From Candidatus Saccharimonadia bacterium (GTDB lineage: Bacteria > Patescibacteriota > Saccharimonadia > Saccharimonadales > 2-12-FULL-41-12), in NCBI GenBank assembly GCA_963717365.1, contig OY970327.1, positions 267,599-331,598 on the forward strand: a stretch of 64,000 bases of DNA, given 5' to 3'. The translations under genes and the position numbers were made by a program. The notes beneath the pieces were generated by a model, which made no database searches, had not been told where the DNA came from, and worked only from the letters and a program-made list of their open reading frames with translations. This document shows, piece by piece, positions 1-64,000 of this stretch. How positions within the stretch are numbered: position 1 is the first letter of the stretch; each line of letters starts with the position of its first letter.

Positions 1-563
1 ATCACCATGAGGACGACAACAAACATAAAGACCCGTCTGTTAGTTTAATTATTGCTGGAGATACAATCCATAACCTCTTGGACGGAGTGGCGATCGCGGC
101 AGCATTTCTTATCAGTGTCCCAACTGGAATTGTTACTACGCTGGCAGTGGCGGCGCATGAAATTCCTCAGGAAATTGGAGATTTTGGATTGCTGCTTTCA
201 AAAGGTATGCGGCGGAGCAAGGTGCTAGTAGTCAACGCTCTGAGCGCAGTAGCAACTATGGTAGCTGCTGTACTCACCTATGCTCTTGGTTCGGACGATA
301 AACTCCCCATCGGCATACTACTTGGTTTAAGCGCCGGTTTTCTGCTTTACATTGCTCTAAGCGATATTATCCCTACTATTCACGCCAAGACAGATGCATC
401 AAAGCTCATACAGTTGCAAACAGTACTGCTGCTAATAGGTGTGATTGTGGTTGGCTTTGTGGTACAGCTGGCTCATCAATATATTGATGTTGACCACCGT
501 GTAGATTCAGACCATAATTATCGTATAGAAGAAAAGTATGACGAACATGTAGAGGAGTACTAA
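1..563 (+). CDS. ZIP family divalent-metal transporter (ZupT/GufA-like), 5' end cut by window edge
   Basis: Frame 3 is open from base 3 (HHEDDNKHKDPSVSLIIAGDTIHNLLDGVAIAAAF) into tracked ORF 78..563. It carries the ZIP signature HEIPQEIGDFGLLL and several hydrophobic segments. Confidence 0.8.
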   Translation, partial: HHEDDNKHKDPSVSLIIAGDTIHNLLDGVAIAAAFLISVPTGIVTTLAVAAHEIPQEIGDFGLLLSKGMRRSKVLVVNALSAVATMVAAVLTYALGSDDKLPIGILLGLSAGFLLYIALSDIIPTIHAKTDASKLIQLQTVLLLIGVIVVGFVVQLAHQYIDVDHRVDSDHNYRIEEKYDEHVEEY

Positions 564-567
564 TAGC

Positions 568-1083
568 GTGGGTTTTTTCAGCGCAATTAAAAAAAACTTA
601 AATCATGGAGGAGTTAAGGTAACGCTACAGGCACCGGCGGTGATTACGACTGATGATTTAACGCTTAACGCTACCTTAGAAATTGTTGCTGACCAACCGC
701 AGCAAATAAATAAAGTAGTGGTTCGATTAGTGCGGACCCGTCACGAAAATAATAATGCTTTCGAGGAAGATAGTGGAACTAGACCCGATGCAAGCGAGTT
801 CGTGCTCGGCAGTTTTATACACGAACAGCCCTTTACCCTGCAGCCCAATATTCCTGTTTCTGTGCCGGTCACTATTCAGTATCAACTTCAAGCTGCGGGA
901 TCAAATACAATTTTGGGCGATGGCCAGATTGCTCACGTATTTGATAAGCTCCAAAAATTTGAAAATATGGCCGGCAATATACGGTACACCTATGAGATAA
1001 CGGCTGGTGTTGACGTGGAAGGCATAGCGCTTGATCCTGGTGATAGAAAACCGATTGAAATCAGCGGTGCTGGACAGCTTTAG
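568..1083 (+). CDS. SpoOM-like (arrestin-fold) protein, short form
   Basis: GTG start 4 nt after the ZIP stop. The N-terminus MGFFSAIKKNLNHGGVKVTLQAP resembles the conserved SpoOM family N-terminus, and the rest is beta-rich. Assigned from memory of the family, not from a search. Confidence 0.45.
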   Translation: MGFFSAIKKNLNHGGVKVTLQAPAVITTDDLTLNATLEIVADQPQQINKVVVRLVRTRHENNNAFEEDSGTRPDASEFVLGSFIHEQPFTLQPNIPVSVPVTIQYQLQAAGSNTILGDGQIAHVFDKLQKFENMAGNIRYTYEITAGVDVEGIALDPGDRKPIEISGAGQL

Positions 1084-1104
1084 ATAAGGTATACTTCTTA
1101 GTAT

Positions 1105-2178
1105 ATGGAAATTGCTATTGCTAGTCTGGTGGTGCTCAATATAATTTTTGTTTTTATCTTGCTGCGTGGCAAAAATCAATCCGGGGATGACCAGGCGGCT
1201 GGGCTGATAAAGCAAGATATCACCGCCTTGTCGGAGAGTGTGATTAAACTTAAAGATACTCTAGGCGTTCAGATCAATGACCGATTAGACCGCAACAACG
1301 AGCAGATGCAAAAAAGCATGATGGCACAATTTAAAGAGTCTACTAAGATTGTCCAAGATGTGACGCAACGGCTGACCAAACTTGATGAAACAAACAAACG
1401 GGTTGTAGACGTGGCAGATGAGCTGAAGACGCTGCAAAACGTGTTACAAAACCCTAAACAACGCGGTGTGCTGGGCGAATATTACTTGGGTCAGGTGCTA
1501 GAAAATGTCATGCCGCCCGATCGATTCCAGCTGCAATACAAATTTAACAATGGTGAGATTGTCGACGCCGTCATTTTTTTGGATAGGGGTAAAATTTTGC
1601 CAATTGACTCTAAGTTTAGTCTGGAAAACTATAACCGCTTAATTGAAGAAAAAGATAAATCACGTCGCGAATCGCTAATGACTGCTTTTCGCAATGACTT
1701 GAAGCTGCGAATTGATGAAACAGCTAAGTACATTCGGCCCGATGAGAACTGCATGGACTTTGCCTTCATGTTCATCCCCAGCGAGGCGATTTATTATGAC
1801 TTGTTAATTAACAAAGTCGGCACTAGCGGCACCACTGCTCGCGACCTGCTAGAATACGCCTTTCGCGACAAAAAGGTGATTATTGTTAGCCCAACCAGCT
1901 TTATGGCCTACTTGCAAACAGTACTACAGGGTCTGCGCAGCCTACAGATCGAAGACCAGGCCAAAGAGATTCAGCTACGGGTTGGACAACTAGGCACACA
2001 TATCGCTGCCTATGAATCATTTATGCAAAAACTAGGCGGTAGCCTCGGCACTACGGTAAATCACTATAATAACGCTCACAAAGAGCTTAAAAAGATTGAT
2101 AAAGACGTTATCAAAATCGCCCGAACAAGTCCTGCCATTGAACCATTAATTCTTGACAAGCCACAAACCGATGAATAG
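1105..2178 (+). CDS. rmuC: DNA recombination protein RmuC
   Basis: N-terminal TM segment and coiled coil, then the RmuC core GVLGEYYLGQVLENVMPPDRFQLQY ... ILPIDSKFSLENYNRL ... FMFIPSEAIYYD. Confidence 0.85.
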   Translation: MEIAIASLVVLNIIFVFILLRGKNQSGDDQAAGLIKQDITALSESVIKLKDTLGVQINDRLDRNNEQMQKSMMAQFKESTKIVQDVTQRLTKLDETNKRVVDVADELKTLQNVLQNPKQRGVLGEYYLGQVLENVMPPDRFQLQYKFNNGEIVDAVIFLDRGKILPIDSKFSLENYNRLIEEKDKSRRESLMTAFRNDLKLRIDETAKYIRPDENCMDFAFMFIPSEAIYYDLLINKVGTSGTTARDLLEYAFRDKKVIIVSPTSFMAYLQTVLQGLRSLQIEDQAKEIQLRVGQLGTHIAAYESFMQKLGGSLGTTVNHYNNAHKELKKIDKDVIKIARTSPAIEPLILDKPQTDE

Positions 2179-2187
2179 GGTTAAGTA

Positions 2188-2472
2188 ATGGATATATTTA
2201 AACGAAAAAAGAAAAAACAGGAAAAAGACTTGATCCAGCGCAATCACAAAGAGATTGCCAGGGCGCTAGAAATTTTGTTTGCTAGTGAGTACATCGACCA
2301 AAAGCGACTATATTTTCACAACTTTTTACGAGGTATAGCGTTTGGCGCTGGCGGTGTGTTGGGAGCCACATTATTGATTGGATTTCTGATCTGGATTTTG
2401 TCACTCTTTGATGAAATTCCTCTGATTGGACCATTATTTGAAAACACCCGCGAATCTATCGAGCGTAAATAA
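2188..2472 (+). CDS. small membrane protein (possibly DUF5665-like)
   Basis: 94 aa with a lysine-rich N-terminus and one long hydrophobic segment, GIAFGAGGVLGATLLIGFLIWILSLF. It starts 10 nt after the rmuC stop. Confidence 0.55.
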   Translation: MDIFKRKKKKQEKDLIQRNHKEIARALEILFASEYIDQKRLYFHNFLRGIAFGAGGVLGATLLIGFLIWILSLFDEIPLIGPLFENTRESIERK

Positions 2473-2493
2473 ACCAGTTTAAATCGCTTATGC

Positions 2494-2522
2494 TTGTGTA
2501 ATTAACGTTGCCTATTTATAGT
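2494..2522 (+). promoter_or_regulatory. promoter of the pyrC-like gene (leaderless geometry)
   Basis: -35 TTGTGT (2494-2499), 17-nt spacer, -10 TATAGT (2517-2522), then 7 nt to ATG 2530 with no SD. Confidence 0.5.
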
Positions 2523-2529
2523 TTCATCA

Positions 2530-3822
2530 ATGGGATTGGAGCGCATTGGGTCAAATCATATTGTATTTTTGCCGGGACCGTTTGACGCGCACATGCATCC
2601 GCGTGTTACAGATGGTATTACCGAAGATGCTTTTGTAGAAATTAATGGTGGCGTAGAAGGTAAGGCTGGTCTTGCGGCCTATACCAAGGCAGCAATTAGA
2701 TCAGGTTTCACAGGCGGTGGCGCTATGCCTAATGAGGTGATGCGCAAATACGCGCCTTGGATGCCCGAAAAAACTACGACGGTGCCGTACCCAATATCTG
2801 ACTTGCGCTCAGTCCACGCCATGCAGTCTGCTATCCAGCAACACTCCTTAATACCAATGGCTGTGTATGCCGGCATTAATCCGGAAGAGATTTTTAAAGA
2901 TAAACAACGCCGCCAGCTTGATGCCGAAACTACTGAACAAAATTTTTTTGAAATCAAAGATGAAGTAATGGCTTTAAAGCTCTGGGGAGATGAGAGTACC
3001 GGGGGCTACAATGTTCCCAAAACATTACTTCCGCGCATAGCCGGCTTGTGGCATAAACATAATCCTGAAAAACCTGTCATTCTTCATCTAGAAGACGCAG
3101 GTGTCGGCGAAGTACTCCAAGACATGTGCCGCTTATATGGCAAGAAGATTCCAATCCATATAGCTCATGTATCATCCCGTCAAGAATTCCAAGCCGTGAT
3201 TGATGCCAAACAGAACGGCATGAATTTAACCTGCGAAGCAACCATTCATCATTTATTCTTGAATGCTGATACTCGTAAGCAAATTGGTGGCTACGGCTGC
3301 ATGAAACCAAGTCTCAAACCTCAAGAAGACGTTGATTTTTTATGGGCCAACATGAAGCACATTGATATTATCGCCAGCGACTGCGCGCCACACCGACGAA
3401 GTGACAAAGAAGGTAAAAATCCGGCGTTTGGCGTCACGAATCACACGGTTATGATTCCTTTAATGATGGGTGCAGTTGAACAAGGCCGTTTATCTATGGA
3501 TGATGTGTTTCAAAAAATGTGTATTGCTCCTCGCAAGCGGTTTAACATTCCCATAGAAGATGGTTCAGAAACTCACATATCAATTGGGCATCACACTAAT
3601 CCCCACTACTTGGAAGAGACAGTCATGCCTGGATATGGCCATAATCCATTTCTACTTATTGACAGAAAAACACTTGGAGCACCACTGGTTGGACGAATTA
3701 TTCGAGTTAAAGCAGGTGTGTCTGATACTGAAGTCAAGCTTCGCCCTAGTTACACCCATATCATTACCCCGCAAACCGTGGCCGCTTTAGCACTGTTAAC
3801 TATAAGGAGCAAAACAACATGA
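2530..3822 (+). CDS. pyrC: dihydroorotase-like cyclic amidohydrolase
   Basis: Metal-ligand motifs of the amidohydrolase/DHOase family: DAHMH (HxH), ALKLW (candidate carbamylated Lys), HIAHVSS, ASDCAPH. Confidence 0.7.
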   Translation: MGLERIGSNHIVFLPGPFDAHMHPRVTDGITEDAFVEINGGVEGKAGLAAYTKAAIRSGFTGGGAMPNEVMRKYAPWMPEKTTTVPYPISDLRSVHAMQSAIQQHSLIPMAVYAGINPEEIFKDKQRRQLDAETTEQNFFEIKDEVMALKLWGDESTGGYNVPKTLLPRIAGLWHKHNPEKPVILHLEDAGVGEVLQDMCRLYGKKIPIHIAHVSSRQEFQAVIDAKQNGMNLTCEATIHHLFLNADTRKQIGGYGCMKPSLKPQEDVDFLWANMKHIDIIASDCAPHRRSDKEGKNPAFGVTNHTVMIPLMMGAVEQGRLSMDDVFQKMCIAPRKRFNIPIEDGSETHISIGHHTNPHYLEETVMPGYGHNPFLLIDRKTLGAPLVGRIIRVKAGVSDTEVKLRPSYTHIITPQTVAALALLTIRSKTT

Positions 3823-4796
3823 ATGAAATAAGAATTGGTCACTTGGAAGTTGACAGCCCGTATGGTAATGCGGGTGGAGTGTTAAAAAGTGCTGAAGACG
3901 TGGCAGCTATGGCTCGGACTGGTGTCGGCTGGTTAGAGCCTGGTTCTTTTACACTAGAAAAACGTTTGGGCAATGCCTGGAATCCCGAGACTGGACTACA
4001 TGACAGAGTTGTATATCACCATGATTCTGACACCGGAGAAACTACCAATTCAATTGGCATGGAGAATCAGGGAATTGATAAAGTCGAAAAAGACATTCCA
4101 GAAATGGTAGCTATTGCAGAATCATTTGGAAAGTTTCTGATCGTCAATGTTGCGCCTGTCAGCGAGGAACCGATTGAGGAAAGTAAAGAACTAGTTCGAC
4201 GCGCTTATGAAGCCGGAGCACACGCGGTTATTTTAAACGCTGGATGTCCAAACGTAATATCAGAAGACGGTGGACGTCACGAAATATTAAGCCGAGATCC
4301 AGCGGCCTTGTACACCGTTCTGGCTGGACTAACTGATGTGGTATCTAAATTTGAACAAATATTTGTAAGAGTTTCACCCCAGGATGACTTGGTTAATACT
4401 CGCAATGTAATACGTGCAATCGAAAAATCTCAAAATGTATCAACCATATTTACGCCAAACACTTGGCCAGGACATAGGCCTTTAGATGCTGACGGAAATC
4501 CAATCTTGGGAGTACCAGGTAATATTGGCGGCTTGAGTGGTCCAGCCACGGCACAGGATGCGGCCGTACAGACTGACTGGTTTGCCATGAGTACGAAACT
4601 AGATGTAGTGAGTTCAGGCGGAATTATGAATGGCAGAGAACTCAAAGAAAGAATGTATATATCATACGGCCGAAGACTGCGAAAAAATGCGGTAGCCGGT
4701 GCGGGAACCACTTTCTTTTATCAATCTGAAGACTGGAAGCACGATGTTGACAAGCTAATTTGGGAATATTTGGACAGCATCGAAAATCATCGCTAG
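3819..4796 (+). CDS. pyrD: dihydroorotate dehydrogenase-like flavoenzyme (class 1 type, catalytic Cys)
   Basis: LNAGCPNV matches the class 1 N-x-x-C-P-N active-site loop. GGLSGP and VVSSGGI are FMN phosphate-binding motifs. The ATGA start/stop overlap with the upstream gene (3819-3822) implies translational coupling. Confidence 0.7.
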   Translation: MNEIRIGHLEVDSPYGNAGGVLKSAEDVAAMARTGVGWLEPGSFTLEKRLGNAWNPETGLHDRVVYHHDSDTGETTNSIGMENQGIDKVEKDIPEMVAIAESFGKFLIVNVAPVSEEPIEESKELVRRAYEAGAHAVILNAGCPNVISEDGGRHEILSRDPAALYTVLAGLTDVVSKFEQIFVRVSPQDDLVNTRNVIRAIEKSQNVSTIFTPNTWPGHRPLDADGNPILGVPGNIGGLSGPATAQDAAVQTDWFAMSTKLDVVSSGGIMNGRELKERMYISYGRRLRKNAVAGAGTTFFYQSEDWKHDVDKLIWEYLDSIENHR

Positions 4797-5290
4797 CGGA
4801 AATTAGTAAAATCAAGCGGAAAATCAAAATCTTGAGCGCGAAGTAATTGCATGACTCCTTGCAATTCGTCCTTTTTGGGGCTGGTGACGCGCACCTCGTC
4901 GCCTTGGATCTGTGGTTTTACTTTTGGATACTGTTCGCGAATGACGGCAGTGACTTTTTTGGCGTTTTCAGCGTTTAGACCTTTTTTGAACGGCACTTCT
5001 TTGGTGGTTTTGAGATTACTCACCGTAGCTTCCTTGGTCGCGTCAAGTACCTTCTGGCTCTGGCCGCGAGTAGCTAGTTTCTTGCGGACAATATCCAAGA
5101 TGGCGTCGATATGGTAATCGCTATCACCAGTAATTTTTAAACCGGTTTTATCGCTGTCTAGCCAATCTAGCTCGGCCTGAGTACCCTTAAGGTCATAACG
5201 ATTACTAAGCTCTTTTTTTGCCTGCTCTACAACATTGTTCATCTCGGCCTTGTCATAATCGGAAACAATATCAAGAGAAAAATTTGCCAT
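4793..5290 (-). CDS. yajQ: YajQ family nucleotide/cyclic-di-GMP-binding protein (UPF0234)
   Basis: 165 aa. MANFSLDIVSDYDKAEMNNVVEQAKKELSNRYDLKG is the typical YajQ N-terminus, and the length is typical. Confidence 0.85.
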   Translation of the reverse strand: MANFSLDIVSDYDKAEMNNVVEQAKKELSNRYDLKGTQAELDWLDSDKTGLKITGDSDYHIDAILDIVRKKLATRGQSQKVLDATKEATVSNLKTTKEVPFKKGLNAENAKKVTAVIREQYPKVKPQIQGDEVRVTSPKKDELQGVMQLLRAQDFDFPLDFTNFR

Positions 5291-5296
5291 ACGGAT

Positions 5297-5305
5297 ATTT
5301 TACCA
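5297..5305 (-). promoter_or_regulatory. extended -10 promoter of yajQ (leaderless geometry)
   Basis: The minus strand reads TGgTAAAAT, then 6 nt (atccgt) to ATG at 5290. Confidence 0.45.
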
Positions 5306-5347
5306 CGATCAACTCCGTATATCAGTAATCTGACATAGTAATTTTAC

Positions 5348-5584
5348 TTATGCATTGGCGGCGTGCTTAGTGTAGGCAACTTCATAAAGAACATCTTTCA
5401 TAATTTTCCTTTGGACGAGTTGTTCCTGTTTAACCTCAGTAACCACACGCTCAAGTCGCTCAATTCTATTTTCTAATCGTATAAAATTATCCGCGGTCAT
5501 TTGCATAAACTCCTGCAAAATAGTCAGAAGATCTTGATTTGTAACGCGCTTTGACGGTTTCATACTATCTACGATACACGTCAT
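5348..5584 (-). CDS. hypothetical small coiled-coil protein
   Basis: 78-aa ORF co-oriented with and just upstream of yajQ. It has heptad-like content (RLENRIERLERVVTEVKQEQL) and no recognisable family. Confidence 0.4.
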   Translation of the reverse strand: MTCIVDSMKPSKRVTNQDLLTILQEFMQMTADNFIRLENRIERLERVVTEVKQEQLVQRKIMKDVLYEVAYTKHAANA

Positions 5585-5628
5585 TTATTAAATAATCATG
5601 AACTTTAGCGTTTTTAACAAGTAATTTT

Positions 5629-5637
5629 TGCTACAAT
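5629..5637 (+). promoter_or_regulatory. extended -10 promoter of pheST (leaderless geometry)
   Basis: TGcTACAAT, then 8 nt to ATG 5646, no SD. Confidence 0.5.
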
Positions 5638-5645
5638 AAACAGAT

Positions 5646-6653
5646 ATGATAAACAAAACAATTGTTGAGGGTTTGCTTTTGCGAGCGAAAAAGGGTGACC
5701 AAACGGTGTTACGCAGCGTTGAGCTAAAGAGTTTGTTTGATGAACTGAAGACGTTACCACCTGAGGAAAGAGGACCATTTGGTAAAGCAGTCAACGCGTT
5801 AAGACTGCAGCTGGAAACAGCTTTGAATTCAAAGCAAGATCCTGCCCTAAAGTTGAAACAGATTGACGTGACCGCCCCTTGGGACGTAAATACTCCACCA
5901 GCCGAACGTCCAACAGTGGGACGTGCTCCTGAAGGCTCACTGCACCCGTTGACACAGGAAATTAATCACATCCTGGACATCTTCGCCCGCATGGGTTTTG
6001 CGGCCATAGAATCCCGCCAAATTGATGACGATTACCACATGTTCGGCAGTTTGAATTTTCCAGAAGGTCACCCGGCGCGTGATGATTATGATACATTTAT
6101 GACCGAAGAAGGCTTGATTGCTCCAGCCCATACCAGCACGATGCAAAACCGCATATTATCTGAAAAAAAGCATTTGCTAGAACAAGGAGACGCTATTGCG
6201 TACGTTATTCCTGGACGAGTTTTTCGCAATGAAGATCTTGATGCGACACATGAGCATACCTTTCATCAACTGGAGGGCGTGTATGTTAGTAAAGACGTGC
6301 ACGCTGGTGTATTAATAGCCGTTTTGCAGGCCTACCTGAATGAATATTTTGGCGAAGAACTGCAAACTAAATTGCAGCCATTTTACTTTCCATTTACCGA
6401 ACCGAGCTTTGAAATGGCGGTAGAGCGTCCTACCATTCTGCGCAAAGATGACTCTGAAGAGCAGAAGTGGCTTGAGTTACTGGGCTGCGGCATGATTCAT
6501 CCGAATGTTCTAAGTATGGCTGGTATAGACCCTGCGGTATACACCGGTTTTGCCTGGGGCCAAGGCATTGAACGGATGGTTATGATGAAGAACGAAATTG
6601 AAGACATCCGACATTTTAATAGCGCTAAATTAGATTTCTTGAGGCAATTCTAA
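5646..6653 (+). CDS. pheS: phenylalanine--tRNA ligase alpha subunit
   Basis: Class II motifs: GRVFRNEDLDATHEHTFHQLEG (motif 2) and GFAWGQGIERMVM (motif 3). Confidence 0.95.
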   Translation: MINKTIVEGLLLRAKKGDQTVLRSVELKSLFDELKTLPPEERGPFGKAVNALRLQLETALNSKQDPALKLKQIDVTAPWDVNTPPAERPTVGRAPEGSLHPLTQEINHILDIFARMGFAAIESRQIDDDYHMFGSLNFPEGHPARDDYDTFMTEEGLIAPAHTSTMQNRILSEKKHLLEQGDAIAYVIPGRVFRNEDLDATHEHTFHQLEGVYVSKDVHAGVLIAVLQAYLNEYFGEELQTKLQPFYFPFTEPSFEMAVERPTILRKDDSEEQKWLELLGCGMIHPNVLSMAGIDPAVYTGFAWGQGIERMVMMKNEIEDIRHFNSAKLDFLRQF

Positions 6654-19229: not shown

Positions 19230-20426
19230 GTGAACCGACTCATTTCTGAGGTATTAGATGCACCCGAACCGCATTTTAGTCATGCAATAAAAAATTGGGA
19301 ACTCTTAAGTGGCGGAAGTGGGCATGACCTTCGGTTGCTATCAGATATTGCCCAAGCTCGAGTGCATGCTCTGCGAGAACTTCAACTTGACGAAACAGAT
19401 ACCACCCAGCGAGAATTGTTTTTTGCATTGCGGCAGCGGGCAACCGCGACAAACCAAGAAATGACTGCTTTACTTAAAATTAATGATAACGATACTTCTG
19501 AGGAAGTAGTGCTTAAGATCATTGCCTTTATTGATTCGCTATCAATACAACGTGAAGTCTGGATCATGAAACACTCAGTAGTTAAGCAGTTACTAAAGAA
19601 ACATTGTCCAAAGAAACTGTTAAAAATACTTGGCCTACGTTCGATCGACTCAGTTATTAAACGCACCAGCGCCTATGAACTTCTTGCGCTGGCTTATCAA
19701 ACTGAGACGCCTGAGTGGACCTTAAAAATGCATACTTACTTTAAGAAGCTAAAGCCAACTGATTTTCAAGCGGGAAGAAGTTCAGTATACACCACAGATA
19801 AAAACAGGGTTGCTAAGCTACATAAAGGCGGTTACGCCAGCTCCAATATATTGCTGCCCAACTATGAAACAGGAACTGTATTGGTAGTCTTGCCGTCACA
19901 GCGATTTCCATTGGACGTAATCGCGATAACACTGTCGCTACTACAAACACTTTATGAATTACGTGTCTACAGCGCCTATTTTCGTCTCATTAGTGTTAAG
20001 CCGGATTTTGGACCGCGACTTTATAATCTTATGCGTAATGGCTTGCCTGGGAAATTGCGTGAAACTGAGATCGGTTGGAAAGTACTTCAGCGTCACTTGG
20101 CCCAGTCTTCAGAAGCTTTTAAAGATGTTGAACAGCCACATTTGCAATATGATGATATCGTGCTCACAACACCACTACAGGCACTCGCCGAAGTTATCCC
20201 ATCAATGCATTTTTGGAACGAACATAACCATATATTTATGGCCGGAGAGGGGACGCCGGTGTCCTTCCATTTGCTGGATGTGGCTACCAATGCCAGCAAC
20301 CAGCTGGCGCCTGAATCTGGATTACGAGCACATCTGCAGCAACAATTGTGGGAAGAACTTGGACTACGCTATCTCCAAAGCCCGGAAATCGAACTGTTTG
20401 TACTTGAAGAGCACGCTAATGATTAG
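19230..20426 (+). CDS. hypothetical protein (398 aa, no recognisable motif)
   Basis: Long uninterrupted ORF with a GTG start 6 nt after the pfkB stop. Protein-like composition, no TM segments, no motif I can assign. Confidence 0.6.
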   Translation: MNRLISEVLDAPEPHFSHAIKNWELLSGGSGHDLRLLSDIAQARVHALRELQLDETDTTQRELFFALRQRATATNQEMTALLKINDNDTSEEVVLKIIAFIDSLSIQREVWIMKHSVVKQLLKKHCPKKLLKILGLRSIDSVIKRTSAYELLALAYQTETPEWTLKMHTYFKKLKPTDFQAGRSSVYTTDKNRVAKLHKGGYASSNILLPNYETGTVLVVLPSQRFPLDVIAITLSLLQTLYELRVYSAYFRLISVKPDFGPRLYNLMRNGLPGKLRETEIGWKVLQRHLAQSSEAFKDVEQPHLQYDDIVLTTPLQALAEVIPSMHFWNEHNHIFMAGEGTPVSFHLLDVATNASNQLAPESGLRAHLQQQLWEELGLRYLQSPEIELFVLEEHAND

Positions 20427-23611: not shown

Positions 23612-24745
23612 CTAGGCTGCCAAATCCATAGGAATTGCTTCATCAGACTTAGCAGACTGCGTATAGCTGTGAAGCGCAATAATCGGTTTGAAATCGACTG
23701 ATTGAAAACTGCCGCTAAAACCGCGGGCTTCACTGAGCGCCCGCAAGCGCAACTCGATGTTATCAAGTGTTTCGGAGCCAGCAATATCTAAATGTGTACC
23801 TTTAGTTCTTTCTAAATAAACCATCGGACGGTTGCCATAGATTTTGCTCCATTCCTCGTGCTGCGACCATGAATCATTTTTAAATAAACGAATATGCATG
23901 GGTGTGGTGTCACGCGTCGCGCAGGCCAGTTTGCCAGCTTGACCGCTCAACAAATTAGGTAGTTTGCAGAGTTCCCTAGCGTAGTATTCCGGATCGCGGC
24001 GGACCGTACCTATATAATGCCGTCCGCGCGGCTGGAGCACTAACTGTAAACCAAGACGGCCAAGAACTGTGGCCTCTTTTGCCAGCTGAAAAAGACCTTG
24101 TGGTACTTCAGCCAAATGAGGGGCACGGGCAAAGCAAGGAGCGGTGAGGTCAGCATAAACTACCTGTCTTGGCCCGCTATACTGCTCAACGTTGAAGGCT
24201 GCAGCTTTCATGGCTCCGCGTGACTCGCCAAGTGTAATTATTTCATCTTGTCTCACATCTACCGTTGGTAAAATATAGTCAAGTACGCGGTTTATGTCAT
24301 GAGAACTTTTAAATAAATTTCCGGTGGCAGCGCTTTTGAGCCGTTTATCAATGGCTTGCCGAGGGTTTTTCTCTTCGTCTTCAGTCCCAATCATAATCAC
24401 CGGATAGCCAGTTTCCATCATGCGAAGCAGGGTACGGCGGTTATGGCCTTTGGTTGAGGTTAGCCATGCGTTAGTAAACACTACGGCAGTATCGCTGCGT
24501 GTCATTCCAAGATATGGACGGCCTACCACGGCTGGGTAAGTGGTGCCGTCGGACATCTCAAATAAATATTCCTGGATGCTACCGCGTCGGTTACTTATCA
24601 GTTCTCCCAAACTGCAGGCCACCACTTCAGCTTGAAAATGCGGTAAAGAACTATCTGTTGGCAGCATATCATTTTGCCCAAAACTAGGAACTTCCTCTAT
24701 CCCTCCTGAGGTTAACTGATCATTAATGATTTCCTGGTGGCGCAT
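23612..24745 (-). CDS. hypothetical alpha/beta-hydrolase-like protein
   Basis: 377 aa with the candidate nucleophile elbow LGESRGAM (G-x-S-x-G) and a candidate catalytic His in KGTHLDIAG. No closer family recognised. Confidence 0.55.
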   Translation of the reverse strand: MRHQEIINDQLTSGGIEEVPSFGQNDMLPTDSSLPHFQAEVVACSLGELISNRRGSIQEYLFEMSDGTTYPAVVGRPYLGMTRSDTAVVFTNAWLTSTKGHNRRTLLRMMETGYPVIMIGTEDEEKNPRQAIDKRLKSAATGNLFKSSHDINRVLDYILPTVDVRQDEIITLGESRGAMKAAAFNVEQYSGPRQVVYADLTAPCFARAPHLAEVPQGLFQLAKEATVLGRLGLQLVLQPRGRHYIGTVRRDPEYYARELCKLPNLLSGQAGKLACATRDTTPMHIRLFKNDSWSQHEEWSKIYGNRPMVYLERTKGTHLDIAGSETLDNIELRLRALSEARGFSGSFQSVDFKPIIALHSYTQSAKSDEAIPMDLAA

Positions 24746-42817: not shown

Positions 42818-42846
42818 TTGACAAAAATAAATATATCTAGTATAGT
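42818..42846 (+). promoter_or_regulatory. consensus-like promoter of the small ORF 42856..43110
   Basis: -35 TTGACA (42818-42823), exact 17-nt spacer, -10 TATAGT (42841-42846), then 9 nt to ATG 42856. Confidence 0.6.
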
Positions 42847-42855
42847 ATGTTCACT

Positions 42856-43110
42856 ATGAGCTTTGAAACGAAGTATAATAAGCAACCTTTAGGCGCGGCT
42901 AATTTTATAAGAATCACATCAGTTGCCGTAGCTGTTGCCGCACTGGTATTTACTGCAAACAAAATGTCCGGTCCCGACATGGATGGCTGTGATTCACAAC
43001 TCTTAAATCCAGGTAGCTGGATAGAATGTACCATTATTGATGGGGGTCAAGCTGTTACCCGTACTGTTTCAAATGCCTTTACGGCAGAGATCAACAGAGG
43101 AATTCCATAA
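42856..43110 (+). CDS. hypothetical small membrane/secreted protein
   Basis: 84-87 aa with a hydrophobic segment (ITSVAVAVAALVFTA) and 2 Cys. It lies downstream of a consensus promoter; ATG 42856 is preferred because ATG 42847 abuts the -10 box. Confidence 0.4.
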   Translation: MSFETKYNKQPLGAANFIRITSVAVAVAALVFTANKMSGPDMDGCDSQLLNPGSWIECTIIDGGQAVTRTVSNAFTAEINRGIP

Positions 43111-43114
43111 TTAA

Positions 43115-43141
43115 CTAGCACTCTTGACATGAGAGTGCTAA
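43115..43141 (+). promoter_or_regulatory. CIRCE-type inverted repeat (HrcA operator-like) over the clpC promoter
   Basis: CTAGCACTC-ttgacatga-GAGTGCTAA versus the CIRCE consensus TTAGCACTC-N9-GAGTGCTAA: 17/18 arm positions match and the N9 spacer is exact. The spacer contains the -35 TTGACA. Confidence 0.75.
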
Positions 43142-43153
43142 TTCTAGTATCAT
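43124..43153 (+). promoter_or_regulatory. sigma-70-type promoter of clpC
   Basis: -35 TTGACA (43124-43129), 18-nt spacer, -10 TATCAT (43148-43153). Confidence 0.55.
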
Positions 43154-43200
43154 ACAATTTAGTGGTACATAAATCGCTAGAAAGTGGGATAATCAAAAGT

Positions 43201-45675
43201 ATGATGCCATCTTCTCCTGACTTTCAGGAATTTTTAAATCATCTAACTGACAACGCTTTAGCCAGTTTGCGCAATGCTGATGCAATTGCTCGCGGCAGCG
43301 GCAGTGCTTACGTTGGTACAGAGCACTTATTACTTGGTGTACTTGCTCAGGACAATTCAATGGGAGCCAAATTGCTTGAAGGTGTGGGCGTAAGCCTTCA
43401 AAAGGCTAAACTTGCGCTTAACGTAACTCCAGGACCTATGCAAGCACTCGGCGCAAAAGGCCTAAGTGAAGTTGCAAAACTTACACTTAAAATGGCCTAC
43501 GAAATTGCCCAGGACTTCAGTCAGGATTACTGTGGGACCGAACATATTTTATACAGCATACTCAGTCAGAAGAATGCCCGTGCAACAGAATTACTGAAGA
43601 ATATGAATGTTGAAGTCGATAATCTTATAACAGAGCTTGATAACTTTTTGCATCGCCAACAATCTAGCGGCGGTGGTATTGCCGAAGCTCAGAAGCCCGC
43701 AACACGCAAACAAAAAAAGACAGCATTAGATTTTTTTGGCACTGACTTAACGGCGCTGGCACGTAATAAAAAATTGGATCCGGTGGTTGGCCGGGAGAAC
43801 CAAATTCGTCGCGTGATCACCATTCTCAGTCGTCGCACAAAAAGTAATCCGGTTCTAATTGGTGAACCAGGGGTTGGTAAAACAGCCATTGTTGAAGGTT
43901 TGGCAGCAAGAATCGTCGCCGAGGATGTGCCCGACAGCCTTTTAGACAAGCGGATTGTAATGCTGGACCTTGCCGCGATGATTGCTGGTACTAAGTACCG
44001 TGGTGAATTTGAGGAACGACTCAAAAAAGTTATGGCAGAACTTGAAAATGATAAAAGTACAATTGTCTTTGTAGATGAGCTACATTTAATTGTTGGCGCA
44101 GGTGCCGCTGAAGGTGCGCTTGATGCCGGTAATATGCTCAAACCGGCTCTGGCCCGTGGAAAAATTCATATGATTGGTGCAACAACGACTGATGAATATA
44201 CTAAACATATTGAAAAAGACGCAGCTCTTGAGCGAAGATTCCAGCCTGTCCAGGTTCCTGAGACTACCGAACCAGAAACAATTTCCATCTTAAAAGGACT
44301 GAAGAAACATTACGAAGCATTCCACAATGTGACAATTAGCGATGATGTGATTGAGGATACGGTGCGATTTGCTAAACGGTATATTAACGATCGTTTTATG
44401 CCTGATAAAGCTATTGATTTGCTTGATGAAGCTGCTGCACATTTACGCGTTGATAAAGGCAAAACACCGCCAGAACTTCGTGAAGCACAAAAAGAACTAA
44501 GGTTACTCCAAATTCGTATTGAGGATGCAGCAGCTAACGAGGACTATGAAGCTGCAGCACGCTATAAAACTCGTGCTAGTCAGTTAACGCAAGATATTAC
44601 TGAGCTTCACAGTAAATATCAGGATACCGAAAAACTTAGGCTGAGTAGCGACGATGTTGCTGCTGTTGTGGCTCGGATAACCGGCGTTCCTGTCCAGAAA
44701 GTTATTAGGACAGAAGCCAAATACTTATTAAATCTGGAAAAAACATTAAAGAAACATATAATTGGTCAATCTGAAGCAATCGAAGCGGTTGCTAAAGCAG
44801 TTCGTCGTAATCGAAGCGGTATTAGTGATGATCGCCGGCCGATCGGTTCGTTTGTGTTTCTTGGTCCAACCGGTGTCGGTAAAACAGAGCTTGCCCGCAC
44901 ATTGGCGCGTGAATTTTTTGGTAGGGACGACGCCTTGGTTAAGATAGACATGAGTGAATTTGGTGAACATCATAACGTATCGCGTCTTGTTGGTGCACCT
45001 GCTGGTTACGTAGGATATGACGATGGGGGGCAATTAACTGATAGGATTCGCCGACAACCATACAGCTTAGTACTGTTTGATGAAATTGAAAAAGCCCACC
45101 CAGATGTCTTTAATATGCTACTTCAATTACTTGAAGACGGCCGTTTGACCGATGGGAAGGGCCGCGTAATCGATTTTAGTAATACAGTGGTCATAATGAC
45201 TAGTAATATTGGTGCCGAAAAGCTGCAGAAGGAAGCGCGACTAGGCTTTAACGTAGAAAGCAAGCAAGATCAAAAAGACCTAGATCTGCTACATGAACGT
45301 AATAAAGAAGAAGTGCTAGAATCACTGCGCAAGATAATGCGGCCCGAACTTCTCAACCGCATAGATAACTCAATTGTTTTTCGCGCACTTACAAAGGATG
45401 AAATTCTTAGCATTCTTGATTTACAAATTGCGAATTTAGAACAACGTTTAGTACGCCATGGCTTAGGACTCAAGATTAAGGCTTCAGCTAAAAGGTATTT
45501 AGCGGAACATGGCTATGATGTAAAAAATGGGGTACGGCCGTTGCGTCGTTTGCTGCAAGAAACACTTGAAGACAATATTTCAAACGGGCTGCTTGACGGA
45601 ACCTACAATAAGGGCGATATGATCAGCATTAGTGCCCGCGACGGAAAATTGACGTACAAAGCAATAAGAGAATAA
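43201..45675 (+). CDS. clpC: ATP-dependent Clp protease ATP-binding subunit ClpC
   Basis: Two Clp_N repeats, two AAA+ modules ([16 protein letters not shown]), a short UVR-like middle domain ([16 protein letters not shown]) and the ClpP-docking loop RLGF. ATG 43201 is used because the tracked start 43129 lies inside the CIRCE/-35 element. Confidence 0.93.
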
Positions 45676-46742: not shown

Positions 46743-48083
46743 TTGCAGTACGTCTGTAATAACTGCGGAGCAATTAGCTCGTCGTGGAGTGGTAAATGTA
46801 TGACCTGCGGCGAGTGGAACACCTTGCAGCAAGAAGCAGTAATTATCTCTGGTGGTAGTACTAAATCCACCCGGCGCCGTCCTGCCCTGCAAATTGTGCC
46901 GGCTCAAACTGCCAGTCATGTTGATAGCTCAATTCGTATTAAAACAACAATTCATGATGTAGATTCTGTACTGGGCGGCGGCTTGGTAGCGGGAAGCGTT
47001 ACATTAATCGCCGGACAGCCCGGTATTGGTAAAAGTACTTTGTTGCTTCAAATTGCCGCAGGTGTCTCAAAAAAGCATCCCACGCTTTATATTAGCGGCG
47101 AAGAATCAGCTCATCAGGTTGGTCTCCGGGCTCGTCGGTTAGGTGTTGAAAATGATGCTGTCCAACTCGCAACAAGTACTAGCGCAGATGATATTGCGGC
47201 TACCATTGGTCGGGAAAATTTTTCAGTTGTAATTGTTGACTCCATTCAAACCTTAACGGTTGAAGGCATTGCTTCTGCGGCAGGAACAGTATCGCAGATA
47301 ACTAATGCCACTCATATACTAACTGCTGCTGCCAAGCAAAAGAATACAGCAGTAATACTAGTAGGCCATGTTACTAAGGAAGGTTCAATCGCTGGTCCTA
47401 AGGTATTGGAGCATGTTGTAGACACCGTACTGCAGCTAGAAGGTGACCGCTACGGCGGCTTTAAGCTTCTTAGAAGTATTAAGAACCGTTTTGGTTCTAC
47501 CACCGAAACTGGTATTTTCGAAATGGTCGATAACGGCTTGGCAGAGGTAAGCAATCCCTCGGCGGCATTACTAGCTGAACGACAGGTAAGTGATGGGTCG
47601 GTTGTTCTAGCTACTATGGAAGGCAGCCGGGCGCTCTTAGTAGAAGTTCAAGCCTTAGTTAATAAAACGTCGTACGGTTATCCAAAACGCGCTGCCAGCG
47701 GCATAGAGCTTAATCGCCTGAATTTACTGATAGCTATGTTAGAGCGGCGCACAAAACTTAATTTAAGCGATCAAGACATCTACATCAATATTGTAGGTGG
47801 TATGAAAATTAACGAACCTGGAGCAGATTTGGCTATTTGTATGGCTATTGCATCAGCGTCCAAAGGGATGCAGCTAAAAGCCAACGCTGTGGTGTTTGGA
47901 GAAATTGGTTTGTCAGGCGAGGTGCGCCACGTGCCATTTGCTGAACGTAGACTAGAGGAGGCTACTAAACTAGGTTTTGACGCGGCAATTGGACCTAAAT
48001 TAAGTGGACGGGCTGCAAAAACAAGTATTTTGCAGCCGGTATCGGATGTACGTAGCGCGCTTAATACTTATTTAGAAATTTAA
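46743..48083 (+). CDS. radA: DNA repair protein RadA/Sms
   Basis: Zinc finger CNNCGAISSSWSGKCMTCGEW, Walker A GQPGIGKSTL, KNRFG motif, Lon-like C-terminal domain. TTG is the only start available after the in-frame stop at 46734. Confidence 0.93.
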   Translation: MQYVCNNCGAISSSWSGKCMTCGEWNTLQQEAVIISGGSTKSTRRRPALQIVPAQTASHVDSSIRIKTTIHDVDSVLGGGLVAGSVTLIAGQPGIGKSTLLLQIAAGVSKKHPTLYISGEESAHQVGLRARRLGVENDAVQLATSTSADDIAATIGRENFSVVIVDSIQTLTVEGIASAAGTVSQITNATHILTAAAKQKNTAVILVGHVTKEGSIAGPKVLEHVVDTVLQLEGDRYGGFKLLRSIKNRFGSTTETGIFEMVDNGLAEVSNPSAALLAERQVSDGSVVLATMEGSRALLVEVQALVNKTSYGYPKRAASGIELNRLNLLIAMLERRTKLNLSDQDIYINIVGGMKINEPGADLAICMAIASASKGMQLKANAVVFGEIGLSGEVRHVPFAERRLEEATKLGFDAAIGPKLSGRAAKTSILQPVSDVRSALNTYLEI

Positions 48084-61488: not shown

Positions 61489-61515
61489 TTAGCACTCAGG
61501 GTTGACGAGTGCCAA
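61489..61515 (+). promoter_or_regulatory. CIRCE-type inverted repeat (HrcA operator-like) over the clpP promoter
   Basis: TTAGCACTC-agggttgac-GAGTGCCAA: 17/18 arm positions match the consensus and the N9 spacer is exact. The spacer/right arm contains the -35 TTGACG. It begins 2 nt after the tig stop. Confidence 0.75.
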
Positions 61516-61530
61516 AAATAGACATATACT
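61502..61530 (+). promoter_or_regulatory. sigma-70-type promoter of clpP (leaderless geometry)
   Basis: -35 TTGACG (61502-61507), 17-nt spacer, -10 TATACT (61525-61530). The ATG at 61537 is only 6 nt downstream. Confidence 0.6.
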
Positions 61531-61536
61531 AGTGGC

Positions 61537-62133
61537 ATGAGTGTACTTATTCCAACTGTTATTGAACAAGAAGGTCGCAATGAGCGAGCCTACGATATTT
61601 ATAGCCGCCTTTTAAAGGAACGAATAATTTTTCTGGGCACAGATGTAAATGAGCATACCGCCAATCTTATTGTTGCGCAGCTTCTGCACCTGGCTAATGA
61701 GGATTCCAAAAAGGATATCTCGCTGTATATCAATAGCCCAGGCGGCAGCGTGTATGATGCCTTGGCAATTTATGACACCATGCAGTTTATTAAACCAGAC
61801 ATCGCAACTTACGGTATTGGCGTTCAAGCCAGTGCAGCGGCATTTCTGCTGAGTAGCGGTACCAAAGGCAAGCGCTCCATGCTCCAGCATGCCACCGTTA
61901 TGATTCACCAGCCTTCTAGCGGTACTCGCGGCAAAGTAACTGACCAAGAAATTGATTTGCGCGAATCACTCCGTATTAAACGCTTGCTTGAAGAGATAAT
62001 GGCCAAAAACACCGGCCAAAAGCCAGAAAAAATCCATGAAGACATGGAACGAGACAAGTGGTTGACTGCCCAGGAGTCCAAAAAATACGGCATTATTGAC
62101 CATGTCATTTCAACTATTCCAGCTAAAAAATAA
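61537..62133 (+). CDS. clpP: ATP-dependent Clp protease proteolytic subunit
   Basis: N-terminus [30 protein letters not shown]. Catalytic Ser in [11 protein letters not shown], His in MIHQPS, Asp in MERDKW. Confidence 0.95.
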
Positions 62134-63079: not shown

Positions 63080-64000
63080 ATGGCTACAAAGAGTAAGACT
63101 GCAGCAAATTCAACTAATACTAAACGTAAATTTTATACCGATAACACTCAGGTCCTTGACCTGCCAAACCTGGTAGACCACCAGAACCGTTCATGGCAAT
63201 GGTTTGTAGAAGAAGGGCTTGGTGAACTGTTGGCTGAAATTAGCCCAATTGATGATTATACCGGCACAAAGCTAAGCCTAAGTTTTAAAGAATACCACTT
63301 TGAAGATCCAAAAGTACCTGAAGCTGAGGCTCGCGAGAACAACGTTTCTTACGAAGCACCGCTAAAGGCTACCGTTGTCCTGACTAATAAAGTTACCGGC
63401 GAAGTTAAGGAGCATGAGATTTATCTTGGGGATTTCCCATGGATGACTGACCGCGGTACATTTGTAATTAACGGCGCAGAGCGGGTGGTTGTTAGCCAGT
63501 TAATTCGTTCAGCCGGTGTATTCTTTACTTCAGAGCTATCAGGTGGACGAAATGTCTACGGCGCTAAGGTTATTCCAGGCCGTGGTGCTTGGCTTGAGTT
63601 TGAAACTGCCGCCAACGGCGCTATGTACGTCAAAATCGACCGCAAGCGTAAAATTCCAGTAACTACCCTGCTTCGTGCATTTGGCATGAGCGAACCTCAA
63701 ATTAAAGATGCCTTTAAGCATGTTGATACCGAGGAAAGCAAGCACTTGCAGGCTACGCTTGATAAAGATCCTTCCAAAAGTGTCAGCGAAGCGCTTATTG
63801 AGGTTTATCGTCGTCTGCGTCCCGGCGACTTGGCAACAATTGATAACGCCCGCAGCCTACTCGAAAACATGTTCTTCAACTTTAAGCGCTTCGATTTCTC
63901 CCGTGTTGGCCGTTACAAAATTAACAAACGTCTTGACCTGGACGTTGCTAATACAGCCGAAAACCGCGTTATGCGCCTGGAAGATCTGATTGCCATCATC
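63080..64000 (+). CDS. rpoB: DNA-directed RNA polymerase subunit beta, 3' end cut by window edge
   Basis: Not in the ORF track because there is no stop in the window. My translation is MATKSKTAANSTNTKRKFYTDNTQVLDLPNLVDHQNRSWQWFVEEGL...GDFPWMTDRGTFVINGAERVVVSQLIRSAGVFF, the conserved RpoB N-terminal region. The frame is open to base 64000. Confidence 0.95.
   Translation, partial: MATKSKTAANSTNTKRKFYTDNTQVLDLPNLVDHQNRSWQWFVEEGLGELLAEISPIDDYTGTKLSLSFKEYHFEDPKVPEAEARENNVSYEAPLKATVVLTNKVTGEVKEHEIYLGDFPWMTDRGTFVINGAERVVVSQLIRSAGVFFTSELSGGRNVYGAKVIPGRGAWLEFETAANGAMYVKIDRKRKIPVTTLLRAFGMSEPQIKDAFKHVDTEESKHLQATLDKDPSKSVSEALIEVYRRLRPGDLATIDNARSLLENMFFNFKRFDFSRVGRYKINKRLDLDVANTAENRVMRLEDLIAII

Follow-up and report, generated by a model that had tools for sequence, protein, structure and literature searches.

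A CIRCE element enclosing the -35 hexamer of the predicted clpC promoter points to HrcA control of the ClpCP protease in Saccharibacteria

The window analyzed here, the whole 64-kb stretch of a Saccharibacteria genome, contains a clpC gene followed by a gene for a membrane-anchored protein and by radA, with clpP located towards the right end (Table 1). Among species-representative genomes, the ClpC loci nearest to that of the window belong to Candidatus Saccharibacteria MAGs, and the nearest proteins bear the label Candidatus Saccharimonadales or Saccharibacteria. The predicted ClpC is complete, with a Clp_N domain, two AAA modules, a UVR motif, and a ClpB_D2-small domain recognized by Pfam, and it can be aligned end to end with the solved ClpC of Staphylococcus aureus and Bacillus subtilis (E about 1e-233), including the LGF loop for docking to ClpP. 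The protein encoded next has a membrane anchor at its N terminus, a TAAHExLHA (HExxH) motif that is invariant, and a coiled-coil-like C-terminal region, and a relative of it is encoded in at least 547 among the 600 metagenome stretches listed. This protein is possibly a metallopeptidase that is transcribed together with clpC. No terminator-like sites were detected in the gap between clpC and the HExxH gene or in the gap between the HExxH gene and radA, and radA is probably the last gene of a putatively co-transcribed clpC unit. The order clpC-HExxH gene-radA is kept in relatives. In one metagenome relative (L131, positions 342-6000), an insertion of about 5.7 kb between clpC and the HExxH gene breaks this otherwise constant order.

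On the 5' side of clpC are pepN (minus strand), nusA, and an ORF of 87 amino acids. The small ORF (window positions 42818-43110) lies between nusA and clpC, has no family match, appears to possess its own near-consensus promoter (TTGACA-N17-TATAGT), and ends with a stop codon 5 nt before the operator described below. Small ORFs occupy the same position in some relatives (L081, L082, and L179), while in others nusA adjoins the clpC promoter region. Elsewhere in the window, two long ORFs of 398 and 377 amino acids (19230-20426 on the plus strand and 23612-24745 on the minus strand) lack a Pfam or NCBIfam match.

Table 1. Features of the clpC and clpP regions, in coordinates of the 64-kb window.
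Feature	Position	Strand	Details and evidence
CIRCE operator at clpC	43115..43141	.	arms CTAGCACTC (43115-43123) and GAGTGCTAA (43133-43141); spacer TTGACATGA (43124-43132)
Predicted -35 of the clpC promoter, TTGACA	43124..43129	+	within the CIRCE spacer; promoter scan
Predicted -10 of the clpC promoter, TATCAT	43148..43153	+	promoter scan
clpC, class III AAA+ unfoldase, ClpP partner	43201..45675	+	Pfam, NCBIfam, structure alignment
Membrane-anchored HExxH protein, 323 aa	45744..46715	+	no family match; alignment A1
radA	46743..48083	+	Pfam; converges on a minus-strand PBP gene
Second CIRCE, TTAGCACTC-AGGGTTGAC-GAGTGCCAA	61489..61515	.	between tig and clpP; 1 mismatch
Predicted clpP promoter, -35 TTGACG, 17 nt, -10 TATACT	61502..61530	+	promoter scan
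clpP, proteolytic subunit	61537..62133	+	Pfam CLP_protease, 1.5e-75

The interval upstream of clpC at positions 43115-43153 reads taaCTAGCACTCttgacatgaGAGTGCTAAttctagtatcat. Its first 27 nucleotides match the CIRCE consensus TTAGCACTC-N9-GAGTGCTAA at 17 of 18 arm positions, the exception being T1 changed to C, and the spacer is exactly 9 nt, as an earlier sequence-only reading of this DNA had proposed. When the entire window was searched for full CIRCE elements with three or fewer mismatches, two sites were recovered, one at clpC and one at clpP, against 0.02 expected from 100 dinucleotide-preserving shuffles of the window, none of which (0/100) reached a count of 2. Single CIRCE half-sites occur in the window at chance frequency, so that only the two complete palindromes stand out.

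The same reading had placed a -35 hexamer inside the spacer of the palindrome, and the promoter scan agrees, pairing this TTGACA with TATCAT. The resulting promoter, TTGACA-N18-TATCAT, predicted from the sigma-70 consensus, matches it at 11 of 12 positions, and its -10 begins 6 nt past the right arm of CIRCE. The end of this -10 hexamer explains the coordinate (43153) at which the sequence-only reading closed the element. Transcription of clpC would be predicted to start near 43160. As this predicted start lies after the palindrome, CIRCE would be absent from clpC mRNA made at this promoter, and a role at the level of the mRNA, as reported in B. subtilis, would not apply. An in-frame ATG at 43129, within the operator, would give a longer clpC ORF, but this start was rejected: the alignment with relatives begins at the residue whose codon is at 43201, and distances between CIRCE and the start codon range from 17 to 184 nt. 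Translation of clpC instead starts at the ATG at 43201 or 43204. A conserved leader block, CTAGAAAG..GG (window positions 43176-43197; alignment A2 columns ~101-135), is found ~5-25 nt before the clpC ATG in many lineages and is probably the ribosome-binding region, though more extended than a plain Shine-Dalgarno sequence.

A second CIRCE had also been claimed for the clpP promoter, and it is present with a single mismatch in the gap between tig and clpP. The -35 of the predicted clpP promoter straddles the spacer and the right arm of the palindrome, with the same layout in relatives. A CIRCE occurs upstream of clpP in 6/6 distinct lineages sampled, ending 21-23 nt before the ATG, and it is kept even where a NUDIX gene or hypothetical genes intervene between tig and clpP. 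The -10 of the clpP promoter ends 6 nt before the ATG, leaving no room for a Shine-Dalgarno sequence (window positions 61525-61539), and thus the clpP mRNA is probably leaderless. The gap from CIRCE to ATG is also short (22-23 nt) in the clpP relatives (L165-L177), and several clpC loci (e.g., L147, L111, and L098) have equally short spacing. Downstream of clpP are an ORF of 204 amino acids and the beginning of rpoB. The last stretch of the window (about 1.1 kb, ~63092-64000) had seemed to be non-coding but holds the 5' portion of rpoB, cut off by the end of the window, with 84% tblastx identity to the rpoB of related loci (L165-L170).

To follow the element across relatives, clpC loci were gathered independently of CIRCE, either via the lineage-specific protein encoded downstream of clpC (metagenome scan) or via ClpC homologs at graded identity. 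In loci with an intact clpC 5' end, a CIRCE was counted when it had three or fewer mismatches and lay no more than 300 nt upstream of clpC. Among 43 distinct Saccharimonadia/Patescibacteria loci, 40 possess the element with 0-3 mismatches (22 of them perfect), and the 9-nt spacer is retained in all 40 as well as in every clpP locus. The three loci that lack it have the most divergent ClpC (50, 52, and 55% identity to the ClpC of the window), while one Candidatus Saccharimonadia lineage with a ClpC 57% identical is still CIRCE-positive. In about 560 kb of fetched related loci, CIRCE with two or fewer mismatches occurs only before clpC. Outside of the Saccharibacteria, none of 76 loci from the Firmicutes, Cyanobacteria, Chloroflexi, Actinobacteria, and other phyla has a CIRCE within 3 kb of clpC. 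The conservation sought in relatives is thus found at 40/43 clpC and 6/6 clpP upstream regions, and the proposal that the HrcA regulon has been 'extended' or 'rewired' to reach ClpCP is supported at the sequence level by the CIRCE conserved at both genes.

Within the element, arm positions 2, 4-9, 19-24, and 26 vary little or not at all, and the flanks are unconserved. In an alignment of 15 lineages (A2), conservation is confined to the CIRCE arms, the TTG of the -35 (at least 90% conserved), positions T1, A2, and T6 of the -10 (invariant), and the leader block near the start codon. Of the 39 sites scored, 37 have a -35-like hexamer within the spacer, in most cases immediately adjoining the left arm and in the others four bases further on, and a TAnnnT -10 is found 16-19 nt downstream of the -35 in relatives. 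One Saccharibacteria MAG (L001) has extra left-arm half-sites, TTAGCACTC (2741-2749) and CTAGCACTC (2828-2836), 90-180 nt upstream of its full clpC CIRCE.

The loci without a full element differ in their organization. In L004 and L178, clpC directly follows nusA with only a ribosome-binding site between them. In L181-L183, with a ClpC 55% identical to that of the window, a TTGTCAC-AAGTGCTAA sequence with a degenerate left arm is present about 110-140 nt upstream of clpC, and by its sequence looks like a decayed CIRCE whose promoter has been retained. As CIRCE is missing from these three distant lineages, the arrangement is clade-specific. In a separate scan of viral contigs for CIRCE with TTG in the spacer, perfect elements with TTG opening the spacer were recovered from two unrelated IMG/VR phage contigs (L163, 850-876; L164, 10691-10717), in both cases intergenic and upstream of small phage ORFs. 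The scan yielded no Saccharibacteria DNA; the phage genes at these sites may be under the control of a host HrcA.

In the Firmicutes, clpC and clpP are under the control of CtsR. A B. subtilis CtsR query had no tblastn match in the window or in any Saccharibacteria locus, while the same query, as a control, found ctsR upstream of clpC in 10 Firmicutes loci. The CtsR heptad direct repeat RGTCAAANANRGTCAAA has 10 matches with three or fewer mismatches in the window versus 7.8 expected, none of them within 500 nt of the clpC or clpP promoters; the absence of a CtsR-type repeat, noted in the sequence-only reading, is therefore borne out by a box count near chance and none near the clp genes. Similarly, the ClgR box TNCGCT-N3-GGCGNAA has 10 matches in the window versus 17 expected, with none near the clp genes, and neither CtsR nor ClgR boxes were found in the related loci. 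The genes mcsA and mcsB were not found in the window, and the word 'CtsR' is absent from the gene tables of Southlakia epibionticum (PMC10633639).

The 64-kb window contains no hrcA, groESL, or dnaK, as judged by Pfam and NCBIfam annotation of the large ORFs and by tblastn, and tblastn searches with the GroEL and DnaK of E. coli and the HrcA of B. subtilis yielded no match in the window or in any of the fetched loci. A candidate for the cognate repressor is instead available from the cultured S. epibionticum. The supplements of Wang et al. 2023 (PMC10633639) include a gene, SEML1_0720, that is annotated only as 'transcriptional regulator' (729 bp, 242 aa), is assigned to KO K03705, has the domains PF01628 (HrcA C-terminal) and PF03444 (HrcA winged-helix DNA-binding), and is located directly upstream of grpE and dnaK, forming an hrcA-grpE-dnaK cluster; the genes flanking it in S. 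epibionticum have no ortholog in the window. On the basis of this published annotation table, an HrcA homolog exists in the Saccharibacteria lineage, in a shortened form. Its domain matches correspond to two domains of the Thermotoga maritima HrcA (1STZ), the winged-helix and the sensor domain, and, judged from the published domain mapping, SEML1_0720 appears to be without the inserted dimerization domain. The S. epibionticum genome has the synteny nusA-clpC-hypothetical-radA, as in the window, and tig-...-clpP-...-rpoB; its gene table has only two 'Clp protease' entries, such that no ClpX is annotated there, and Tn-seq found SEML1_0720 to be essential and clpC and clpP to be non-essential (PMC10633639). 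In transcriptome ratios for TM7x, clpC (annotated as 'ClpX') changes in the same direction as groES and dnaK, while clpP changes in the opposite direction, and thus the ratios do not demonstrate co-regulation. The text of the transcriptome supplements examined has no HrcA entry for TM7x.

Taken together, the element at 43115-43141 is very probably a functional CIRCE operator for an HrcA-type repressor, positioned directly over a sigma-70-type clpC promoter in a Saccharibacteria genome, and control of the ClpCP protease in this lineage most likely falls to HrcA and not to CtsR. The sequence shows the site itself, how rarely such a match arises by chance, its conservation in relatives, the conserved promoter that it overlaps, and a lack of CtsR and ClgR signals; beyond this, we infer HrcA binding, repression, induction by stress, and the extent of the operon. 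Placing an operator over the -35 is a classic way to repress by occlusion. Once bound to the palindrome, an HrcA dimer would cover about -45 to -19 relative to the predicted transcription start, taking in the -35 and most of the spacer between the -35 and -10, and would exclude RNA polymerase. In unstressed cells clpC would stay silent, probably together with the HExxH gene and radA downstream of it, and the second CIRCE would impose the same repression separately at clpP. In the established GroE-titration model, the activity of HrcA depends on GroESL, and repression is relieved when unfolded proteins sequester GroESL. By analogy, proteotoxic stress in Saccharibacteria would sequester GroESL and leave HrcA inactive, such that ClpC and ClpP would be derepressed together with the chaperones. 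HrcA would in this way fill the role held by CtsR in the Firmicutes, ClgR in the Actinobacteria, and sigma-32 in the Proteobacteria.

Several other readings of the palindrome were weighed against an HrcA operator. It could act as RNA, as a hairpin that terminates or stabilizes the transcript of the upstream small ORF and nusA: when transcribed, the palindrome folds as a 10-bp hairpin (81-nt region, -21.2 kcal/mol, z = -3.8), its proximity to the stop codon of the 87-aa ORF would suit such a role, and the clpP CIRCE, read on the minus strand, is terminator-like with a T-run. However, the coding strand has no U-tract at either the clpC or the clpP site (the tail at clpC is TTCTAGTAT), the terminator scan did not call the clpC site on the plus strand, and there is no minus-strand gene at clpP for a terminator to serve. 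The stem is fixed in sequence, without covariation across 39 lineages, and the changes that do occur (A3G, T25C, T1C, and A27G) are mostly not compensatory; the loop of the hairpin would hold the conserved -35 hexamer, with the conserved -10 downstream, and CIRCE stays beside clpC and clpP whichever gene is upstream, be it nusA, small ORFs, NUDIX, or hypotheticals. A role as an RNA element is accordingly judged to be highly improbable. The notion of a chance palindrome or a decaying relic without present function draws on the apparently decayed copy in L181-L183 (right arm AAGTGCTAA, TTGTCA), which indicates that loss of CIRCE does occur, but it has to contend with a number of sites in the window far above expectation, both before Clp genes, and with arms that are near-invariant while ClpC is only 57-90% identical and the flanking DNA is unconserved. 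Conservation at the sequence level effectively refutes this reading, to which we assign a negligible probability.

More closely related to the preferred reading is the idea that the operator is real but serves a different regulator, or that HrcA acts otherwise than by simple repression. This would accommodate the truncated 242-aa protein as the only documented Saccharibacteria HrcA, the lack of an hrcA within the window, an operator position over the -35 that differs from the Bacillus arrangement, and the opposite directions of the clpP and dnaK expression ratios in TM7x. We know of no other protein family that binds CIRCE, though, and the short HrcA keeps the winged-helix DNA-binding domain PF03444, while the operator-over--35 layout fits repression by occlusion. 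Moreover, the arms are those of the pan-bacterial CIRCE consensus, unchanged from the Firmicutes to the delta-proteobacteria (PMC545781). Such an alternative regulator or mode of action therefore seems unlikely, if less so than a role in RNA. It is also conceivable that clpC is under dual control, by HrcA at CIRCE and by a second, unrecognized class III-type regulator encoded elsewhere. Dual control by CtsR and HrcA has precedent in the Firmicutes, for clpP in Streptococcus salivarius and for dnaK and groESL in S. aureus; furthermore, alignment A2 contains the additional conserved 5' leader block CTAGAAAG..GG, and the window offers a view of 64 kb of the genome. Against this, the window and related loci have no ctsR homolog and no CtsR or ClgR box at the clp genes, the S. 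epibionticum tables make no mention of 'CtsR', and the leader block occupies the position expected for a ribosome-binding site, making a second regulator very unlikely.

Beyond control of clpC by HrcA as such, a broader proposal can be made, and is offered tentatively as something possible but short of probable: that a minimal HrcA (~242 aa, without the inserted dimerization domain) is the single proteostasis regulator in a large Saccharimonadia clade, directly controlling ClpC-ClpP through a lineage-specific design in which the -35 sits in the CIRCE spacer. If true, this would explain why hrcA is essential and clpC and clpP are dispensable in S. epibionticum, as loss of the repressor would unleash ClpCP. 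Full-text searches of the available library returned no relevant paper linking HrcA with the Saccharibacteria, the Patescibacteria, or the candidate phyla radiation. Gene regulation in these groups is poorly studied, and the clpC region offers a concrete, conserved candidate pairing of transcription factor, operator, and promoter. The predicted stress regulon takes in the main cytosolic protease of the lineage and would represent a case, independent of the Mollicutes, of a genome-reduced bacterium folding control of proteolysis into the HrcA circuit; mechanistically, it is an extension of a known theme. The prediction is directly testable in S. epibionticum, for which natural transformation and Tn-seq data are available (PMC10633639), and the conserved CIRCE-plus-promoter cassettes are possible stress-responsive promoters for genetic tools in Saccharibacteria.

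The element shares with classical CIRCE/HrcA systems the operator sequence, the arm length, the spacer, and a location in the promoter region of a proteostasis gene. The B. subtilis CIRCE coincides with the transcription start or follows it and has an additional role in the mRNA, whereas the operator here encloses the -35 and is untranscribed from the predicted promoter. A winged-helix HrcA homolog is likewise present in this lineage in an hrcA-grpE-dnaK cluster (S. epibionticum, PMC10633639), though about 100 aa shorter than classical HrcA. The targets also differ, with chaperonins in the classical systems and the ClpC unfoldase and ClpP peptidase here; in a comparative study, groESL was the only constant HrcA target and proteases were under other regulators, sigma-32 (PMC545781).

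The closest precedent is the HrcA regulon of Mycoplasma, likewise genome-reduced, in which HrcA/CIRCE governs genes for AAA+ proteases and disaggregases besides chaperones, with lon, clpB, pepA, and pip included in Mycoplasma pneumoniae and Mycoplasma genitalium. HrcA/CIRCE of M. pneumoniae, which relies on the Lon and FtsH proteases, controls lon and clpB (PMC7737663), and its tig-CIRCE-lon layout parallels the tig-CIRCE-clpP arrangement of the window. The two cases differ in that Lon and ClpB are the targets in Mycoplasma and ClpC and ClpP are the targets here, in another phylum; a consistent placement of the -35 within the spacer is not known from Mycoplasma.

The CtsR regulon of the Firmicutes (ctsR-mcsA-mcsB-clpC-radA-disA, clpP, and clpE) has the same clpC and clpP targets and the same linkage of clpC to radA, and by analogy would share the logic of a promoter-bound repressor relieved by proteotoxic stress. 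It differs from the Saccharibacteria locus in that ctsR, mcsA, mcsB, and the heptad repeat are lacking here, a CIRCE palindrome is present, and nusA instead of ctsR is upstream of clpC. As the source of the window is a Saccharibacterium (TM7, Patescibacteria/CPR) and not a Firmicute, CtsR is not the expected native regulator here but serves as a comparison, on a par with the ClgR of the Actinobacteria and the HrcA regulon of Mycoplasma. In the Actinobacteria, the hosts of cultured Saccharibacteria, ClgR has the same targets, clpC and clpP1P2, as in the bifidobacteria, where clpC and clpP are under ClgR (PMC9004370), but it is an activator, and the box to which it corresponds is absent near the clp genes of the window. 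Judged by its sequence, spacing, position, and conservation, the Saccharibacteria element is a bona fide CIRCE, with unusual targets and a placement of the -35 within the spacer that is typical of the lineage.
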